6,147 nt of DNA from an uncultured archaeon. GTDB taxonomy: Archaea > Iainarchaeota > Iainarchaeia > Iainarchaeales > 0-14-0-20-30-16. How positions within the stretch are numbered: position 1 is the stretch's first letter; the number at the start of each line of letters is the position of its first letter. The translations under genes and the position numbers were made by a program. The DNA lies in assembly GCA_964565725.1 (NCBI GenBank), contig CAZMGA010000027.1, forward strand, positions 1-6,147, given 5' to 3'. Shown one piece after another: positions 1-6,097 of the stretch. Under the pieces are notes generated by a model. It saw only the letters and a program-made list of their open reading frames with translations. It did not search any database and had not been told where the DNA came from.

Positions 1-278
1 AATAAAAAATCTACTTTTTTAAAGAATCCAACATGTATTACTGGTCTAACTAATTCTAATCTTCCAAAGTGTCCCATACATCTATCAACAGTTTGACCAC
101 AAGTTTTACATCTTCTACCTCTATCTGCTACACCTAAATGAGGGTCCATTAATCCTCCTTCTATAGGAAATCCATCCTTATCATATAATTCAGGAGTTTT
201 AATTTCTATTACAGATAATTTTCTAATTTGTTCAGGTGATAAAACACCTAATTTCAATGATCCAATTCTCTTTAACAT
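1..278 (-). CDS. rpoA1: DNA-directed RNA polymerase subunit A' (largest subunit, N-terminal part); 5' fragment of 92 codons, gene continues beyond the left edge of the window
   Basis: This gene is not in the supplied ORF track because it is edge-truncated. Reverse-complement translation from the ATG at 278..276 gives MLKRIGSLKLGVLSPEQIRKLSVIEIKTPELYDKDGFPIEGGLMDPHLGVADRGRRCKTCGQTVDRCMGHFGRLELVRPVIHVGFFKKVDFL, with no stop down to nt 1. It carries the C-x2-C-x6-C-x2-H zinc motif (nt 69..110) followed by GHFG..EL..PV.H, typical of the N-terminus of archaeal A' and eukaryotic Rpb1. It starts 9 nt after the rpoB1 stop, matching the canonical archaeal order H-B-A'. The sequence AGGGAT lies 3 nt upstream of the ATG. 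Confidence 0.9.
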   Translation of the reverse strand, partial: MLKRIGSLKLGVLSPEQIRKLSVIEIKTPELYDKDGFPIEGGLMDPHLGVADRGRRCKTCGQTVDRCMGHFGRLELVRPVIHVGFFKKVDFL

Positions 279-287
279 ATAATCCCT

Positions 288-2099
288 CTAAGCATAATCC
301 TTAATACTAATCTTTGGATAAATTGCAATTGATTTTAATTCATCTAAAAACAATTTAAAAGAATAAGGCATCGATATTTGAACAATATTTGTACCGCTAC
401 AACTCGGACAATATAATTTTCCTTGTACTTTATCATCTATAGCTAATATTCCACATTCAGAACATATTGGTAAAACAATTTTATCTGAATCTTCAACTAA
501 CTTTTCATTTAATAACATTGCAGCACCATAACCAACTAAACAATCGGATTCCATTTCTCCAAACTTCAATCCACCTTCTTTTTCTTTTCCTTCTGTTGGT
601 TGTCTTGTCATTAATTGTACGGGACCACGAGCTCTTGCTTGAATTTTATTCATTACTATATGGTATAATCTTCTATATGCTACCATACCAGTATAAATTT
701 CTCCTTTAATATATGCTCCAGTTCTACCATCATAAAATGTTTCATAACCATCAGGTCTAAAACCATAATTTTCTAAAACTTTTTTAATATCATCTAAAGG
801 TTCATTTGAAAAAGCAGTACCCGATACTTGAGAACCTTTTAATGCAGCTGCTTTTCCTCCAATTAATTCTAATAGATCTCCTATAGTCATTCTAGAAGAA
901 ATAGATACAGGATTTAATAATAAATCAGGAATAATTCCATTAGCACTTACAGGCATATCTAATTCATTTGCTAAAAATCCTACAACACCTTTTTGTCCAT
1001 GTTTAGAAGAAAATTTATCTCCCATTTCTGGAATTCTTTGTGTTCTAACTTTTACCTTTAACATTTTTTCATTTCCAGAACTAGAAATAAATACTCTATC
1101 AATATAACCTTGCATATTTTTCTTAACAAACATAGATTTATCATCATATTTTTCTTCCATTAATCCTAAAGTTGGAACATTATCCATAAATCTAGGAGGT
1201 GCTAATTTAGAAATTAAAACAGTATCTTTATCTACAAAAGTTTCTATTTCAGGCAATGTATCCATACCAATATTTTTATATGCTGAATCCCCTAAAAATC
1301 CACCATTTTCTTCAGTAGGTATTGCAAAAAATTCTTTTTGCCCACTAGGATAAGTAACTTCTTTATCAGTATAAGTTCTATAATAACTCATTCTACCTAA
1401 TCCTCTTTCTACTGCACCTTTATTTATTACAATTGCATCTTGAGTATTAAAACCAAAATAAGGTATAATTGCAACTACAAAATTTTGTATAATTGGTCTA
1501 TCATCTAAACCCAAAATATCTGAAAAATTTGTTTTTACTAATTGTTTTTGAGGATAATATAAATTATAATATTCAGTTTCTGTTCTTAAATTATGATTTG
1601 GACCTACAAAACCTACACCTTGTTTATACATTTTTGAACCGTGTAATGCTTTTGTAGCCATGTTATGTTCTACAAAAGGAGTTAAAGATGTAACCATACT
1701 GTAAATAGTTGCGGGTTCTAATTCCATATGTGTATGTTCTTTGCCCAATACTTTTTCTGATGTAGCTATAAATAAATTATCTTCTTCATCAGCATCAATA
1801 TATTCTATAATTCCTTTTTTTATTAAATCATCATATTTTATTTTTTTTGATTTTAATTGAGATATATGTTCATCAGTTAATAATACTTTTCCATCTTTAA
1901 CAGTTAAAACAGGTCTTTGTAATCTACCAGCACCAGTATTTATGTATACTTCGTGTGTATCTTCTTTATAATAAATATTAATTAAACTATCTATTTTTCC
2001 ATGTCTTCTTAAATCCTTTATACTATTTATTAATTGAGAAGAATTCTCATGAAATCCAACTAATTTACCATCTAAATATACTTTTACTTTCTTCATCAT
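288..2099 (-). CDS. rpoB1: DNA-directed RNA polymerase subunit B' (C-terminal portion of the split second-largest subunit)
   Basis: The ORF-track entry is 288..2108. It shows hallmark second-largest-subunit motifs: GDKFSSKHGQKGVVG, NPVSISSRMTIG, ARARGPVQLMTRQPTEGKEKEGGLKFGEMESDCLVGYGAA, and a C-terminal zinc ribbon CSECG-x14-CPSC. The stop is TAG at 288..290. I place the start at the ATG at 2099 (MMKKVKVYLDGKL) because AAGTGAT lies 4 nt upstream, mirroring the AGGTGAT of rpoB2. The GTG at 2108 (a 4-nt GTGA overlap with the rpoB2 stop) and the ATG at 2096 remain possible starts. Confidence 0.94.
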   Translation of the reverse strand: MMKKVKVYLDGKLVGFHENSSQLINSIKDLRRHGKIDSLINIYYKEDTHEVYINTGAGRLQRPVLTVKDGKVLLTDEHISQLKSKKIKYDDLIKKGIIEYIDADEEDNLFIATSEKVLGKEHTHMELEPATIYSMVTSLTPFVEHNMATKALHGSKMYKQGVGFVGPNHNLRTETEYYNLYYPQKQLVKTNFSDILGLDDRPIIQNFVVAIIPYFGFNTQDAIVINKGAVERGLGRMSYYRTYTDKEVTYPSGQKEFFAIPTEENGGFLGDSAYKNIGMDTLPEIETFVDKDTVLISKLAPPRFMDNVPTLGLMEEKYDDKSMFVKKNMQGYIDRVFISSSGNEKMLKVKVRTQRIPEMGDKFSSKHGQKGVVGFLANELDMPVSANGIIPDLLLNPVSISSRMTIGDLLELIGGKAAALKGSQVSGTAFSNEPLDDIKKVLENYGFRPDGYETFYDGRTGAYIKGEIYTGMVAYRRLYHIVMNKIQARARGPVQLMTRQPTEGKEKEGGLKFGEMESDCLVGYGAAMLLNEKLVEDSDKIVLPICSECGILAIDDKVQGKLYCPSCSGTNIVQISMPYSFKLFLDELKSIAIYPKISIKDYA

Positions 2100-2104
2100 T
2101 CTAA

Positions 2105-3568
2105 TCACTTCTCATAAACATTTAATTTACGTAATAAAGGTTCTAAATCTTCATTTTCGTAATCAGTAGTAATTTTTGCCATAATAGACATGTTTTTAAT
2201 TAATCCACAATTTGGACCATCTGGAGTTTCTACAGGACATACTCTACCCCAACTAGTTCCGTGTACACTTCTTGCTTCATAACTTTCTCTACTATTATCT
2301 AAAGTAGATTTTAATTTTCTCATTTCAATAATTGAATTTAACCAATTATATCTTGTAAAAAAAGTACTCACACCAGTTAATTTACCAGCCCAAGTTCCAG
2401 TAGCCATTCCAAACATAATTCTATCAGAAATAACATCTGGTCTTATTATTGTATTTATTTTTAATCTTCTTCTTCTTACTAAATTTCTATCTATTTGTAA
2501 TTTAATATCATTTATAAAATAATTAAAAGCTTGCATAAATTGTCTTTCTAATAATTTTCCAGATAATTCTATTCTTTTATTTGGATAACTATCTCTATCA
2601 TCTATAGTTCTTAACCCATAAGCTAATTCTATTGCTCTTTGAGCCATACCTATTAAATAATGTGCTTTTAATGTTCTTTTATCTTCAGTTTGACCTATAT
2701 GAGGTAATAAAAAATTATCAATTATTTCATAAGTTCTTTTTAATCTATAAGATTGAATTTGTCCAGGAGCAACATATTTTCCTATTTGATCTAATGCTTC
2801 TTCTTCATTTTCAATACTTATTCTACTAAAATTTAATAAAACATCATTTTTTATTTCAGGAACATCTTCAAAAGCATTTAGATAATCTTCCTTAGTTTTA
2901 AATCCCAAACCTCTTAATAAAACAAAGAATTTTAATTTTTTAGGACTTGAAGGAAAATTTATTTCTAAAATACCGTTTGAATTTCTAATTAATTTTACTT
3001 TTCCTTTAAATGCACCTTTTGTAGATAATACTTCTGCAATTGTTTTATTTCCATCTTCAGAAACCATAATTTTATCAGATGCTAAAACTTCTTGACTTAC
3101 CAAAACTTTTTCTACACCATTAATTATAAAATAGCCACCTAAATCTTTTGGATCTTCTCCATGAACAATTAGTTCATCTTCTTTAAAACCATTTAAATTA
3201 CATAATTTTGATTTTACCATTACTGGTAATTCTCCAATAGATGTTCTTTTAGTATCTTGTAAAACTCCTTTTCTATATAATTCAATATCAGCAAATAAAG
3301 GAGCACTATATGTTTTATCTCTTAAACGAGCCTCCATAGGCATAAAATCAGTTCTTCTTGAACCATCTTCTTCTACAATTTGAGGAGGTAAAATATTTAT
3401 ATTTTTTAATCTTATTTCTACATCTTCAACTCTAGATTTTATTATTGAATTTTCTTCAATAATTTTTGGTACTTTATCATATATAAATTGATTATAGGAG
3501 TCTACATTTTGTTGAATAACAGAGTTATTCTCATAATAGGCCCTAATTAAATCCCAACCAGATTGCAT
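2105..3568 (-). CDS. rpoB2: DNA-directed RNA polymerase subunit B'' (N-terminal portion of the split second-largest subunit)
   Basis: This is a 487-aa ORF. Its N-terminus (WDLIRAYYENNSVIQQNVDSYNQFI) and internal motifs (PMEARLRDKTYSAPLF, GEDPKDLGGYFIINGVEKVLVSQE, IDDRDSYPNKRIELSG, RVCPVETPDGPNCGLIKN) are characteristic of the Rpb2/RpoB N-terminal half. It ends at TGA (2105..2107) in a different frame from rpoB1, so the B''/B' split is genuine and not a frameshift. AGGTGAT (3572..3578, minus strand) sits 3 nt upstream of the ATG. Confidence 0.95.
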   Translation of the reverse strand: MQSGWDLIRAYYENNSVIQQNVDSYNQFIYDKVPKIIEENSIIKSRVEDVEIRLKNINILPPQIVEEDGSRRTDFMPMEARLRDKTYSAPLFADIELYRKGVLQDTKRTSIGELPVMVKSKLCNLNGFKEDELIVHGEDPKDLGGYFIINGVEKVLVSQEVLASDKIMVSEDGNKTIAEVLSTKGAFKGKVKLIRNSNGILEINFPSSPKKLKFFVLLRGLGFKTKEDYLNAFEDVPEIKNDVLLNFSRISIENEEEALDQIGKYVAPGQIQSYRLKRTYEIIDNFLLPHIGQTEDKRTLKAHYLIGMAQRAIELAYGLRTIDDRDSYPNKRIELSGKLLERQFMQAFNYFINDIKLQIDRNLVRRRRLKINTIIRPDVISDRIMFGMATGTWAGKLTGVSTFFTRYNWLNSIIEMRKLKSTLDNSRESYEARSVHGTSWGRVCPVETPDGPNCGLIKNMSIMAKITTDYENEDLEPLLRKLNVYEK

Positions 3569-3571
3569 TAA

Positions 3572-3578
3572 ATCACCT
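3572..3578 (-). promoter_or_regulatory. Shine-Dalgarno sequence of rpoB2 (AGGTGAT)
   Basis: The minus strand reads TAA-TTTAGGTGATTTA-ATG in the 13-nt rpoH-rpoB2 spacer. The motif is complementary to the ..AUCACCU.. 16S 3' tail. It indicates translational initiation inside the operon. Confidence 0.6.
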
Positions 3579-3581
3579 AAA

Positions 3582-3815
3582 TTATACCACTACCCTATAA
3601 TAATTTATAGGATCTTTAAAAATAGATTCTCTTTCTATCTTTACTACATCACCTAATTTTGGTTTCAAATTAGTAATTGCGGGATCACTAATCTTTATTT
3701 TAGGTAATTCGTTTATAGTTATTTCATATTTTTTTAATAATTCTTTTACTTCGTCTTCACTTAAAATTAGATGTTTAGGTACGAAAAAATGTTTAGTAAT
3801 ATCAAAATTTGCCAA
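3582..3815 (-). CDS. rpoH: DNA-directed RNA polymerase subunit H (Rpb5 C-terminal domain homologue)
   Basis: This 77-aa ORF contains HFFVPKHLILSEDEVKELLKKYEITINELPKIKISDPAI...GDVVKIER.S......YYRVVV, the typical RpoH/Rpb5 pattern. It sits immediately upstream (13 nt) of rpoB2, as in archaeal RNAP operons. The start codon is TTG (3815..3813) and there is no in-frame ATG anywhere in the ORF. GGAGGG lies 6 nt upstream of the start. Confidence 0.9.
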   Translation of the reverse strand: MANFDITKHFFVPKHLILSEDEVKELLKKYEITINELPKIKISDPAITNLKPKLGDVVKIERESIFKDPINYYRVVV

Positions 3816-3821
3816 GGAAAA

Positions 3822-3827
3822 CCCTCC
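3822..3827 (-). promoter_or_regulatory. Shine-Dalgarno sequence of rpoH (GGAGGG)
   Basis: The minus strand reads ATTGGAGGGTTTTCC-TTG. The GGAGG core is complementary to the conserved archaeal 16S rRNA 3' end. It lies 6 nt before the TTG start. Confidence 0.6.
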
Positions 3828-3876
3828 AATAGTATATACAGCATGGAAATAGTTAAATATATCATTAAGAGAAATA

Positions 3877-3884
3877 TATATAAA
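3877..3884 (-). promoter_or_regulatory. Candidate archaeal TATA box (TTTATATA) for the rpoH-rpoB-rpoA operon
   Basis: The minus strand reads TAGTAAGC-TTTATATA-TATTTC, an exact match to the methanogen-type box A consensus TTTATATA. A transcription start about 25 nt downstream would fall near nt 3850. That leaves a leader of roughly 35 nt containing the GGAGGG SD. This is a sequence match only, and AT-rich DNA produces many such matches. Confidence 0.4.
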
Positions 3885-3892
3885 GCTTACTA

Positions 3893-3915
3893 CTATTATA
3901 CACTATCTATTATAA
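3893..3915 (+). promoter_or_regulatory. Candidate TATA-like elements for the GGDEF gene, formed by a direct repeat of CTATTATA
   Basis: CTATTATA occurs at 3893..3900 and again at 3907..3914 on the plus strand. With the usual archaeal TATA centre near -26/-27, the distal copy predicts a short leader starting near the GGAG. The proximal copy predicts an essentially leaderless mRNA starting at the ATG (3937). I cannot discriminate between these from sequence alone. Confidence 0.3.
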
Positions 3916-3936
3916 TACCAATGGAGATATATATTT

Positions 3937-4980
3937 ATGAAAAGAATTTTACCTGGAGACTTATTTTTAATATTATCTAAATTAATTAGATTGCAAAATA
4001 CTAACTATGTTAATGTTTTTGACTACATTAAAAATATTAAGGAATATATCCCTAAAATAGAAAACATAAGTTATTTTGCAAAACAAAACAATTTTTTAGA
4101 GTATGATGTTTTAGGTAAAATAGAAAATATAAATAAAAATTTATTAAATTTATCTTACGATCAAATAAAATATATATATTTATCAAAAAAAAAGGCATAT
4201 GTTTTTAATAATGAAATTGAAAATACAGAATATTATAAAATACATTTAGATAAAAAAAATAATTTAGAACAAATATATGTGCCTATATTTATTGAAAAAA
4301 AAGATATCCCTAAAAATAAAATTATAAAAATTGGAGTTTTTATTTTCGAAGGTAAAGATTTAAAATTAAAATCAAATATTTTAAAAATTAAAAATATTAT
4401 TTTAACAATTATTTTCTTTGCATCTGTTTTTAGCAGTATTTCTCAAATGTTATACAAAAGATATGATAAATTAACATCTATGATTGCTAGAAATGAATTT
4501 GAATTTGAAATTAATAATGTTTTATTATCTAAACCAAAACAGATTAGTATTTTAATGTTAGATATAGATCATTTTAAAAAAATAAATGATACTTATGGCC
4601 ATAAAGTAGGAGATAAAATATTAAGTGATTTTTCAAAAATTATTTTAAAAAATATTAGATCCACAAATAGGGCTAAAAATATTAGAGATATTCCCTTACG
4701 TTGGGGAGGAGAAGAATTTGTAATTATTTTATGTAATACTAATTTAGAAAACAGTTTAAAAATTGCAGAAAGAATTAAAAAAAATGTAGAAAAAAATAAT
4801 TTTATTATTAATAAAAAAATTATAAAAATTACAACAAGTATTGGGGTTATAAATTCAAAACAATTATTGAAAAAAAAATATTCTAAAAAATATATTTTAA
4901 ATTTAATTTCACTAGCAGATCAACAATTATACTTTGCAAAAAATTCTGGAAGAAATAAAATATGTGTTTACAATGAATAA
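3937..4980 (+). CDS. Membrane-anchored GGDEF-domain protein (putative diguanylate cyclase) with an unassigned N-terminal region
   Basis: This is a 347-aa ORF. The C-terminal approx. 150 aa (about nt 4522..4974) carry the full GGDEF signature: ILMLDIDHFKKINDTYGHKVGDKIL, the RWGGEEF active site (nt 4699..4719), a TTSIGV strand, and ADQQLYFAKNSGRNKICVY. A hydrophobic helix, NIILTIIFFASVFSSISQMLY, spans about aa 153-173 (nt 4393..4455). The 170 codons upstream of the first internal Met are stop-free in very AT-rich DNA, which supports the long N-terminal extension as coding. GGAG lies at 3923..3926, upstream of the ATG at 3937. Confidence 0.85.
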   Translation: MKRILPGDLFLILSKLIRLQNTNYVNVFDYIKNIKEYIPKIENISYFAKQNNFLEYDVLGKIENINKNLLNLSYDQIKYIYLSKKKAYVFNNEIENTEYYKIHLDKKNNLEQIYVPIFIEKKDIPKNKIIKIGVFIFEGKDLKLKSNILKIKNIILTIIFFASVFSSISQMLYKRYDKLTSMIARNEFEFEINNVLLSKPKQISILMLDIDHFKKINDTYGHKVGDKILSDFSKIILKNIRSTNRAKNIRDIPLRWGGEEFVIILCNTNLENSLKIAERIKKNVEKNNFIINKKIIKITTSIGVINSKQLLKKKYSKKYILNLISLADQQLYFAKNSGRNKICVYNE

Positions 4981-4984
4981 TGAT

Positions 4985-6097
4985 TTATATTTTTAACATA
5001 TATTCTTCAATTTTGTTTTTTGCTTCTTCTCTAGCTTTTTGATGTTTTATTAAAAATTCATTTATTTTATTTATAGCTATTTGTTTTAATTCTCCACTCA
5101 ACAATTTACCTGATTTATAATCATCATAAATTTGTTTTAATTTATCATCATCATATTCTAAAAATCTTAAATATTGATAACTAATATCTATATCTGGATT
5201 ACCACCTTTTTTTCTATGTTCTTCAATAGTTGGTTGTCCCCCAGAAAATGCATATTTATTTATTTTATTTTTTACTTCTTTCTCACTATCTGTTGAAAAT
5301 ATAGCAGTATTTTCTAAACTTGAAGACATTTTAGAATCATCATTACCTTGTAAGCCTGGTAAAAATATTCCTTGAATACTTGAAGGCTTATAATATCCTA
5401 ATTTTTCTACCACATCTCTAGTAATTCTAAAATGAGGATCTTGGTCTACAGCATGAGGTATTAAACAAGGTATTTTTTTCTTTTTTAAAACACAAGGTAA
5501 AAAACAAGGTACAGTTTGCATAGAAGTATAAAAAATTGACCCTATATTATTTTCATTAGTAAAACCAAATGAACTTTTTACAGTTGAAAAAGTAATTTTT
5601 TTTGCTACTTTTATTGCTTCAGGATACATTAATCCAGAATGTTTTGTATCTAAAATAAAATGTGTTTTTTTAGGATCAAATCCTAAAGCTATAACATCCA
5701 ACATATTATCATAAGCTAATTTTGTTGTTTCTTCTAAAGTCAAATCTTTTTTAAATAAAAATTTTTCATCATCTGTAAATTGGAAATATAATTCAACATC
5801 AAATTTATCTTGCAACCATTTTGTAAAAATCCAAATGATTAAATGACCCAAATGAATTTTTCCGGAAGGCCCTCTACCAGTATATAAAAAAAACTTATTT
5901 CCTTTTTCATATTCATCTAAAATGAATTTTAAATCTCTATGAGCAAAAAATATATTTCGTTTTAAATAAGGATGAATTTCACCAGTTATTTTTTCTATTC
6001 TCTTTAATAAATCATTATCTATAACTGATAATCCAAATTCTTTAATTATCTTTTCATATTCTAAATTGCCTTTTACTTCGTAAGGATTTATTATCAT
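4985..6097 (-). CDS. trpS: Tryptophanyl-tRNA synthetase, archaeal/eukaryotic type (class I)
   Basis: This 370-aa ORF reads as nearly collinear with eukaryotic/archaeal TrpRS from memory. Matching segments are YEKIIKEFG, FFAHRD, YTGRGPSGKIHLGHL (HIGH motif HLGH at nt 5843..5854), TKWLQDKF.V, QFTDDEKFLFK.LTLEE, CLIPHAVDQDPHFRITRDV, the KMSKS-equivalent KMSSS, YAFSGGQPTIEEHRKKGGNPDIDISYQYL and YKSGKLLSGELK. GTGAT (6101..6105, minus strand) lies 3 nt upstream of the ATG. Confidence 0.93.
   Translation of the reverse strand: MIINPYEVKGNLEYEKIIKEFGLSVIDNDLLKRIEKITGEIHPYLKRNIFFAHRDLKFILDEYEKGNKFFLYTGRGPSGKIHLGHLIIWIFTKWLQDKFDVELYFQFTDDEKFLFKKDLTLEETTKLAYDNMLDVIALGFDPKKTHFILDTKHSGLMYPEAIKVAKKITFSTVKSSFGFTNENNIGSIFYTSMQTVPCFLPCVLKKKKIPCLIPHAVDQDPHFRITRDVVEKLGYYKPSSIQGIFLPGLQGNDDSKMSSSLENTAIFSTDSEKEVKNKINKYAFSGGQPTIEEHRKKGGNPDIDISYQYLRFLEYDDDKLKQIYDDYKSGKLLSGELKQIAINKINEFLIKHQKAREEAKNKIEEYMLKI

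Follow-up and report, generated by a model that had tools for sequence, protein, structure and literature searches.

Whether an archaeon can carry a genuine and functioning diguanylate cyclase, the kind of enzyme that produces cyclic di-GMP (c-di-GMP), a second messenger, is the question raised by a gene on contig CAZMGA010000027.1, whose 6,147 nucleotides were analysed as a whole and are called the window here. The gene encodes a GGDEF protein and lies between the RNA polymerase operon and the tryptophanyl-tRNA synthetase (TrpRS) gene of a DPANN archaeon (Candidatus Diapherotrites, Iainarchaeota). A preliminary description of the window regarded GGDEF domains and c-di-GMP signalling as essentially bacterial, and reviews agree, describing GGDEF, EAL and PilZ proteins as almost exclusively bacterial (PMC10249747, PMC5847659, PMC10086821, bioRxiv 10.1101/2021.11.05.467447); archaeal GGDEF proteins derived from metagenome-assembled genomes (MAGs) "need to be confirmed in archaeal contigs" (PMC10086821). 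Judged by its sequence, the gene is genuinely of the GGDEF kind, its active site is intact and its contig is unambiguously archaeal, and we think it reasonably probable that its product is a ligand-regulated cytoplasmic diguanylate cyclase making c-di-GMP. The gene and the parts of its protein were located as follows.

3937..4980, plus strand: GGDEF gene, 347 aa, ATG start, without internal stops; the stop codon ends at 4980.
3937..4461, plus strand: N-terminal domain, aa 1-175, predicted GAF-like sensor fold (AlphaFold, Foldseek), without a Pfam match.
4462..4977, plus strand: GGDEF catalytic domain, aa 176-347 (Pfam, Foldseek, phmmer).
4561..4614, plus strand: substrate- and metal-binding segment from D209 through K214 and N217 to D226 (PleD alignment).
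4678..4689, plus strand: position of the allosteric I-site (RxxD), here N248-I-R-D251, degenerate and outside the product-inhibited class.
4699..4719, plus strand: A-site motif R255-W-G-G-E-E-F261, aligned to PleD R366-Y-GGEEF372.
4936..4956, plus strand: phosphate-binding A-K335-N-S-G-R339-N, aligned to PleD K442 and R446.

The preliminary description had placed the GGDEF hallmarks in the C-terminal half of the protein. When the translation was searched against PF00990, aa 176-341 matched the full-length profile (positions 3-161 of 161) with E=1.2e-35 and 123 bits against a cutoff of 23.8, bearing out that assignment, and the coordinates given for RWGGEEF, nt 4699-4719, proved exact (aa 255-261). 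TIGR00254 was matched with E=7.6e-40 and 136 bits against a cutoff of 37.4, and a phmmer comparison of the window protein with PleD gave E=1.7e-22. In Foldseek searches, the predicted model resembled the solved GGDEF domains of DosC, PleD, WspR and a V. cholerae GGEEF protein, a palm-type fold, with target-normalised template-modelling (TM) scores of 0.71-0.83 and root-mean-square deviations of 1.9-4.4. The predicted local distance difference test (pLDDT) score of the full model was 79, and most 10-residue blocks of the GGDEF domain scored 75-93.

Functional residues were mapped by HMMER alignment to PleD chains, and all of the PleD catalytic residues were found intact. In the stretches LMLDIDHFKKINDTYGHKVGD (aa 206-226) and ADQQLYFAKNSGRNKICVY (aa 327-345), D209 corresponds to the metal-binding D327 of PleD, N217 and D226 to N335 and D344, which recognise guanine, and K335 and R339 to K442 and R446, which contact phosphates; K214 and R255 align with K332 and R366, which belong to the same set of metal- and GTP-binding residues. 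The GG(D/E)EF motif is intact as G257-G-E-E-F261 (nt 4705-4719), aligned with the active-site GGEEF at PleD 368-372. Among 14 family members, whose identity is otherwise 24-47%, D209, K214, N217, D226 and the string RWGGEE are invariant (14/14), GGEEF is present in all members except P0137, which has GGEEM (13/14), K335, G338 and N340 are invariant, and position 339 is R in 12 members and K in two. RWGGEEF was also considered as a signature of the family and rejected, because 71 of the 112 top bacterial-type hits carry RW as well. The guanine-specifying Asp at D226 bears on the product. Hypr GGDEF enzymes, which make cyclic GMP-AMP (cGAMP), carry Ser or Thr at this selectivity position (Hallberg et al. 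2016, as cited in PMC10249747), and since Asp and not Ser or Thr stands here throughout the family, c-di-GMP rather than cGAMP would be the expected product.

The question then turns to the host, for which the neighbouring genes were identified as listed.

1..278, minus strand: N-terminus of rpoA', cut by the window edge; translation MLKRIGSLKLGVLSPEQIRK...CKTCGQTVDRCMGHFG.
288..2108, minus strand: rpoB', Rpb2 domains 4-7 in Pfam.
2105..3568, minus strand: rpoB'', Rpb2 domains 1-3 in Pfam; served as taxonomic yardstick.
3582..3815, minus strand: rpoH (Rpb5-like), PF01191 with E=1.4e-24, NF007129 with 94 bits against a cutoff of 83.
3816..3936, no strand: divergent rpoH/GGDEF spacer, 121 nt.
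4985..6097, minus strand: trpS, archaeal/eukaryote-type TrpRS, NF008927 with 511 bits against a cutoff of 478, and PF00579.

Archaea-specific informational genes flank the GGDEF gene on both sides, with RpoH, the split RpoB''/B' and RpoA' on one and an archaeal-type TrpRS on the other, as had been proposed, and the distances reported earlier, 121 nt to rpoH and 4 nt to the trpS stop codon (4985-4987), are both exact. rpoH is the first gene of the RNA polymerase operon and is divergent from the GGDEF gene, while trpS is convergent with it. The rpoA' frame, read from 278 to 1 on the minus strand with CKTCGQTVDRCMGHFG in its N-terminal translation, has a full A' counterpart at the equivalent position of the orthologous contig L004. 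Named relatives of the window's RpoB'' belong to "Candidatus Diapherotrites archaeon" (53-57% identity), and the NCBI lineage of the Diapherotrites MAGs is Archaea; Nanobdellati; Candidatus Iainarchaeota.

A homologue search of 5.8 billion proteins yielded five clusters of full-length relatives, P0002-P0006 (44-48% identity, 95-98% coverage), which together with P0130 give full-length orthologues 43-49% identical to the window protein. P0007 came next, with only 55% of the query matched (E=1e-30), yet it can be aligned over the full length as a more distant relative; beyond it lay ordinary GGDEF-domain matches at E ~1e-27. In L001, L002/L003, L004/L005, L006 and L007/L008, rpoH is divergent on one side of the GGDEF gene, and trpS is convergent on the other wherever the contig extends far enough; rpoH is the immediate neighbour in all orthologous contigs long enough to include its side. 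GTDB genomes and JGI metagenomes were also scanned with the family-specific N-terminal half of the protein, which returned the "Candidatus Diapherotrites archaeon" MAGs AlinenLipids_bin-4341 and CG08_land_8_20_14_0_20_30_16 and four further contigs, all syntenic; an exact-match search of JGI metagenomes for the GGDEF/trpS junction returned nothing. At least 11 contigs, assembled independently by different assemblers and from different samples, show the rpoH/GGDEF/trpS arrangement, and the 37-kb contig of L004 carries a complete archaeal block, rpoH-B''-B'-A'-A''-L30e-S12-S7-EF2. In the CG08 MAG the orthologue is split over two contig ends, L013 58-759 and L014 10001-10150 (PEXK01000022 / PEXK01000039), and the halves are annotated "hypothetical protein, partial" (PIU22421.1, PIU22230.1), which may explain why the gene stayed unnoticed. 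Homologues in the same archaeal lineage, which the preliminary description had seen as a possible weakness of its claim to novelty, do exist, but they are undescribed.

The composition of the gene fits its surroundings at third codon positions. Its GC content there (GC3) is 0.095 against 0.074-0.128 for the neighbours, and in 5 of 5 genomes the GC3 of the GGDEF gene equals that of the housekeeping neighbours, even though GC3 ranges from 0.09 to 0.20 between genomes. The earlier remark that the gene is at least as AT-rich and as biased to Lys, Asn and Ile as its neighbours holds, with overall GC at 17.7% against 24-28%, and these three residues at 41.5% of the protein against 21-33%. The protein evolves fast, with 43-49% identity between orthologues where RpoB'' has 81-86% and RpoH 65-78%. 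The dN/dS ratios of the closest orthologue pairs, 0.12 and 0.21, indicate that these pairs are under purifying selection; ratios for distant pairs were discarded, since dS was saturated and biased at GC3 ~0.1.

The spacer between rpoH and the GGDEF gene was aligned for seven orthologous loci. Three AT-rich, TATA-like boxes are conserved in it (~3853-3862, 3874-3885 and 3908-3917), and the invariant columns cluster in these boxes despite saturated synonymous sites. The boxes and the Shine-Dalgarno sequence of rpoH (GGAGG on the minus strand, 3822-3827) are kept across all seven lineages, and GGAG at 3923-3926 lies 11 nt 5' of the GGDEF start codon. Conservation of the boxes suggests that archaeal promoters serve both genes, so the GGDEF gene would probably be driven by a conserved TATA-like promoter of its own within the divergent spacer.

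To place the gene in time, a neighbour-joining tree was made from 87 GGDEF domains, namely the family and the 80 most similar database proteins, a similarity-biased sample. The seven syntenic orthologues were monophyletic in 57 of 60 bootstraps, and no supported bacterial sister group emerged among the 87 domains; the closest bacterial-type matches are spread over many phyla (SAR324, Thermodesulfobacteriota, Aquificota, Campylobacterota and Nitrospirota), with 34-50% identity over the domain. In L019, whose RpoB'' is 69% identical to the window's, rpoH is the very next gene to trpS, 215 nt away and in the same orientation, which is an "empty site" with no GGDEF gene and, by tblastn, no remnant of one. 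A 340-aa unannotated protein beside trpS in L019 was considered as a diverged GGDEF protein and rejected as unrelated. In a relative with 63% identical RpoB'', the locus has a different upstream neighbour. Synteny and empty site would be explained most simply if the gene had entered once, between trpS and rpoH, in an ancestor that gave rise to a genus- or family-level clade, and had been passed on vertically since then; loss of the gene in L019, rather than its never having been there, is a formal possibility. Because the orthologues are monophyletic, GC3 is ameliorated in every genome and the closest pairs are under purifying selection, the earlier view that this is not a very recent transfer is supported, and the empty site in a sister lineage agrees with it. 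The gene had also been called horizontally acquired and domesticated. The domestication stands, in that the gene is an archaeal resident, whereas the tree gave no bacterial donor, and acquisition from bacteria is suggested by the overall distribution of GGDEF proteins.

The architecture extends beyond these orthologues. An exhaustive HMMER search with a profile of the N-terminal domain, run against 1.84 billion cluster representatives (50% identity clusters), found nine proteins in total, eight of them fused to a GGDEF domain with RWGGEE(F/M); the ninth, P0132 (91 aa), is a fragment. P0136 is encoded on a 144-kb NCBI contig (L020) among FEN1, deoxyhypusine synthase, GGGP synthase and an archaeal-type triose-phosphate isomerase (TIM), and the named relatives of this FEN1 are Candidatus Micrarchaeota. 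P0134 (L016) adjoins an archaeal-type TIM, P0137 (L021) adjoins the PolD small subunit and UPF0147, and the genomic context of P0133 and P0007 is uninformative. Where context can be read, the fusion of this domain to GGDEF is restricted to DPANN archaea, with two or more phyla represented, on contigs of Iainarchaeota and of Micrarchaeota-like lineages. The TIM gene is divergently paired with the GGDEF genes of P0134 and P0136 (L016 9001-9654, minus strand; L020 8781-9431, minus strand), and this pairing is a second, independent conserved neighbourhood. The GGDEF domains of the wider family are not monophyletic (0 of 60 bootstraps).

Two accounts of the gene's origin compete with acquisition and vertical descent. 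One is that a bacterial GGDEF gene was mis-joined to archaeal DNA through contamination or chimeric assembly, which is exactly what MAG-derived archaeal GGDEF and HD-GYP reading frames have been suspected of (PMC5847659; bioRxiv 10.1101/2021.11.05.467447), and the window, at 6.1 kb, is a short contig. Because at least 11 contigs of independent assembly share the gene order and the junctions, those of named Diapherotrites MAGs among them, such an artefact is excluded for practical purposes, against which the preliminary description had argued from the tight packing and the composition of the gene; archaeal genes within 4 and 121 nt, a GC3 equal to that of host genes in each genome and the conserved spacer also speak against it, and we regard this explanation as effectively refuted and scarcely credible. 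The other account makes the protein an ancestral DPANN-wide archaeal enzyme, old in Iainarchaeota and Micrarchaeota and lost from most lineages. It could draw on the occurrence of the N-terminal domain only in fusion with GGDEF, on the three further members with readable archaeal context (L020, L021, L016) and on the lack of a bacterial sister clade in the tree. We nevertheless find it quite unlikely, given that most Diapherotrites relatives are only 53-57% identical to the window in RpoB'', that the two closer ones (69% and 63%) are without the gene at the locus, and that the family amounts to nine clusters at 50% identity in 1.84 billion proteins. The failure of the wider family to group on its GGDEF domain (0/60 bootstraps), its differing genomic position in the two phyla and the overwhelmingly bacterial distribution of GGDEF (PMC10249747) point the same way.

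What the enzyme may respond to would depend on its N-terminal domain. The AlphaFold model of aa 1-180 (pLDDT 85.2, predicted TM score 0.84) has the topology a-a-b-b-a-b-b-b-b-b-long helix, in which two helices and a mixed sheet are followed by a C-terminal helix leading into the GGDEF domain; the predicted linker helix, aa 150-176, ends the N-terminal domain. The best Foldseek matches in the PDB are GAF/PHY domains, 4bwi (7e-4) and then 4g3k, 8jrc and 5w10, with TM scores of 0.40-0.51 and marginal E-values; these folds are those of Cph2, NLH1, NifA and Lcd1. For the whole protein, the top Foldseek hits, matched along the entire model, are enzymes built as sensor, helix and GGDEF, namely the phytochrome-diguanylate cyclase 5llx and the GAF-GGDEF protein Dcsbis (4zmu). 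At the sequence level, the N-terminal domains of 13 of 13 members have no significant Pfam family, the one GAF_2 match being non-significant at E=0.084; the whole window protein has no GAF-family Pfam match at E<=0.01, and the N-terminal domain has no match in NCBIfam or PDB profile searches. The domain is predicted, from its modelled fold, to be a GAF-like sensor.

A hydrophobic stretch at aa 154-172 was considered as a membrane anchor and rejected. Its mean Kyte-Doolittle hydropathy is 2.05 in the window protein and 1.2-1.56 in orthologues, which carry Arg and Asp within it, and the model shows it as the helix that ends the sensor domain. Since this hydrophobicity is not conserved, the stretch is unlikely to be a membrane helix, and we read the protein as soluble and the long helix as the dimerising linker typical of regulated diguanylate cyclases. 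This differs from the earlier suggestion that a soluble domain would begin at about aa 180, as the first ~180 residues are predicted to form a soluble GAF-like sensor with its linker helix.

At the I-site, whose RxxD stands five residues upstream of GG(D/E)EF in the product-inhibited class, the family is divided. RxxD is kept in P0004-P0007, P0131, P0135 and 106 of 112 bacterial-type top hits, and lost in the window protein, P0002, P0003, P0130, P0133, P0134, P0136 and P0137; the window protein also has a 7-residue insertion relative to PleD just upstream of its NIRD. Product inhibition was probably lost in the window's sub-lineage, and as the I-site is degenerate, classical feedback inhibition by the product is probably absent or altered.

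From these features we infer enzyme activity, a dimer mechanism and ligand control. The divergent GAF-like domain would sense a small molecule or a protein, and its long C-terminal helix (aa 150-176) would pair with the helix of a second subunit. Such pairing could set two GGDEF domains, each with one GTP-Mg, in antiparallel register, in which they would condense 2 GTP into c-di-GMP; with the degenerate RxxD, feedback inhibition by the product would be missing or changed in the window's orthologue.

Several observations weigh against assigning the protein to c-di-GMP synthesis under ligand control. No EAL, HD-GYP, PilZ or c-di-GMP riboswitch is present in the gene tables of the window, in agreement with the preliminary description, or in those of ~200 kb of related loci, and no Rfam family reached its gathering score, c-di-GMP-I and -II riboswitches included, in the window and eight loci (85.5 kb); where no pathway is visible, a cyclase might serve some different purpose. 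Detection of c-di-GMP has never succeeded in an archaeon, tests having been confined to Sulfolobus and Haloferax (PMC10249747, PMC8646023). The branch of the window protein is long, its identity to orthologues being 43-49% beside 81-86% for RpoB'', dS is saturated for most pairs, and the GAF-like assignment draws on a predicted fold whose TM scores are modest (0.40-0.51) and which sequence searches do not support.

In one alternative that builds on these points, the protein no longer signals through c-di-GMP and either has a structural or regulatory role through protein contacts or makes another nucleotide, such as cGAMP, pppGpG or the like. Staphylococcal GdpS reportedly acts by protein-protein contacts; the similarity of the window protein to GdpS, 88.7 bits against a cutoff of 400, indicates shared domain membership only. 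The absence of pathway partner genes from the available DNA, the lost I-site and the fast sequence evolution would suit such a role, which we still hold to be unlikely, because GTP-binding and catalytic residues that stay invariant in 14 otherwise divergent members are hard to explain without catalysis, and D226 specifies guanine where Hypr enzymes have Ser or Thr. Nucleotide cyclases are also common in defence systems, and the content of the rpoH-trpS interval varies between relatives, so that a component of an anti-virus system using a cyclic nucleotide might be imagined. We consider this very improbable: PADLOC found no defence-system match for the GGDEF protein or its occasional neighbours, the neighbourhood is a stable housekeeping one, no effector-type gene is consistently linked, and in the window, L001, L002 and L012 no co-oriented gene comes before the next flank, which is trpS except in L012, where a gene for a 156-aa membrane protein stands there. 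Synthesis of c-di-GMP by a ligand-regulated cyclase remains the reading that we favour.

Two proteins encoded beside family members may be mentioned with regard to a pathway. The P0002, P0003 and P0004 lineages, and L025 as well, have a gene between GGDEF and trpS for a 279-284-aa, apparently all-helical protein that is absent from the window (L004 11154-11993, plus strand; L007 1758-2612, plus strand; L006 ~3103-3867, plus strand; L025 1129-1911). Co-orientation with the GGDEF gene makes it a candidate partner; its identity from lineage to lineage is 25-49%, and it has no Pfam, NCBIfam or PADLOC match. A 208-220-aa protein is encoded directly downstream of P0134 and P0133 (L016 11445-12071 and L015 1376-2038, both plus strand); it has a conserved N-terminal YDDIFSDFD(P/Q)SPY motif, two predicted hydrophobic (transmembrane) helices and 47% identity between copies, neither of which matches any family. 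By position alone, the helical protein of Iainarchaeota and the two-helix membrane protein are candidate receptors. A wider proposal is that a family of sensor diguanylate cyclases with a novel GAF-like domain fused to GGDEF, so far met only on contigs of archaea and maintained in the DPANN phyla Iainarchaeota and Micrarchaeota, makes c-di-GMP in vivo and acts through receptors unrelated to PilZ, EAL and HD-GYP, possibly governing host-cell attachment or exchange. We put this forward as a doubtful though conceivable idea; if true, Archaea would have their first case of c-di-GMP signalling. With a defined protein and defined genomes for receptor mining, the use of c-di-GMP by any archaeon becomes a testable matter, and one of special interest in the DPANN group, whose genomes are small and whose members are believed to rely on others (PMC9938205).

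Other features of these loci were noted. In AlinenLipids_bin-4341 the gene after the GGDEF gene is not trpS but encodes a 156-aa protein with a C-terminal hydrophobic anchor (L012 10389-10859, minus strand), so that relatives differ in what lies between rpoH and the next housekeeping gene. At its conserved position, trpS exists as two very different types (window 4985-6097, minus strand; L001 5403-6518; L002 5119-6231; L006 3890-4696; L004 11985-13103; L019 6480-7592). The window, L001, L002 and L006 have the first, with 76-89% identity among the three complete copies and 77% between the partial L006 copy and the window; L004 and the GGDEF-less outgroup L019 have the second, 72% identical to each other. 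Between types, identity is 39-43% (47% for partial L006 against L004), despite RpoB'' identities of 81-86% across the GGDEF-bearing genomes and 69% to L019, and this looks as if an aminoacyl-tRNA synthetase gene had been replaced in situ. On the 37-kb contig of L004, the EF-2 gene, which is downstream of the RNA polymerase/S12/S7 block (L004 1-671, where it runs past the locus edge), encodes 1264 aa with intein-splicing and LAGLIDADG domains and is thus an EF-2 with an intein. On the P0150 contig (RpoB'' 63% identical), a few kb upstream of rpoH, there is a PycTM-domain gene and after it one for an Apyc1-like metallo-beta-lactamase (genes at 4190-5693 of the listed range); a DPANN archaeon here has domains of cyclic-nucleotide defence and anti-defence type. 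In the window, rpoB'' and rpoB' overlap by 4 nt (2105-2108), and the longest rpoH and rpoB' reading frames begin with TTG and GTG; the true start of rpoB' is probably a few codons downstream of 2108, since orthologues start at the equivalent of an internal MKK. GC3 is extreme genome-wide, at ~0.07-0.13.

Among known systems, the closest in architecture are Dcsbis/PA2771 of Pseudomonas aeruginosa (4zmu) and the Idiomarina phytochrome-diguanylate cyclase (5llx), which have the same order of GAF/PHY-type sensor, long helix and C-terminal GGDEF; Foldseek alignments of both cover both domains, and Dcsbis, at ~340 aa, is similar in size to the window protein. The window protein differs from them in its archaeal host, its lost I-site and an N-terminal domain without sequence similarity to Pfam GAF families (fold TM 0.40-0.51). 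With PleD, WspR and DosC, of Caulobacter, Pseudomonas and E. coli, it has in common 33-38% identity over the domain, the catalytic, metal-, guanine- and phosphate-binding residues and GGEEF, but their input domains are REC or globin where the window protein has a predicted GAF-like one, and PleD and WspR have a working RxxD I-site in place of NIRD with its upstream insertion. The Hypr cGAMP synthases (Geobacter GacA, 6d9m, which is among the Foldseek matches, and Bdellovibrio Bd0367) have the same fold and GGDEF chemistry and differ at the selectivity residue, Ser/Thr against Asp (D226 = PleD D344). Earlier archaeal GGDEF reading frames were likewise encoded in archaeal genomes, one of them also DPANN. 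RCIX2274 of Methanocella arvoryzae (CAJ37382; REC-PAS-PocR-GGDEF-HD-GYP) is the single accepted one, and "Ca. Micrarchaeum acidiphilum" has a REC domain with an inactivated GGDEF, MAG-derived proteins of bacterial type being possible contamination (PMC5847659; bioRxiv 10.1101/2021.11.05.467447). Those are single cases with bacterial-type multidomain architecture or an inactivated motif and of questioned authenticity, whereas the window's gene has an intact motif and syntenic orthologues in many genomes; the described architecture of CAJ37382 sets it apart from the window protein, whose own occurs only on archaeal contigs where context is readable. Full-text literature searches brought up no work on GGDEF families in Iainarchaeota or Micrarchaeota and none on diguanylate cyclases of archaea. 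By comparative genomics, the locus supplies the confirmation on archaeal contigs that reviews had called for, with a gene that is conserved and ameliorated across a clade, under purifying selection, and missing from the corresponding site of a sister lineage. As an enzyme, its product is an unexceptional representative of a familiar class, and the surprise lies in its phyletic distribution, not its mechanism; what is new is GGDEF as a stable, selected archaeal resident fused to a putative sensor domain so far seen only on archaeal contigs.

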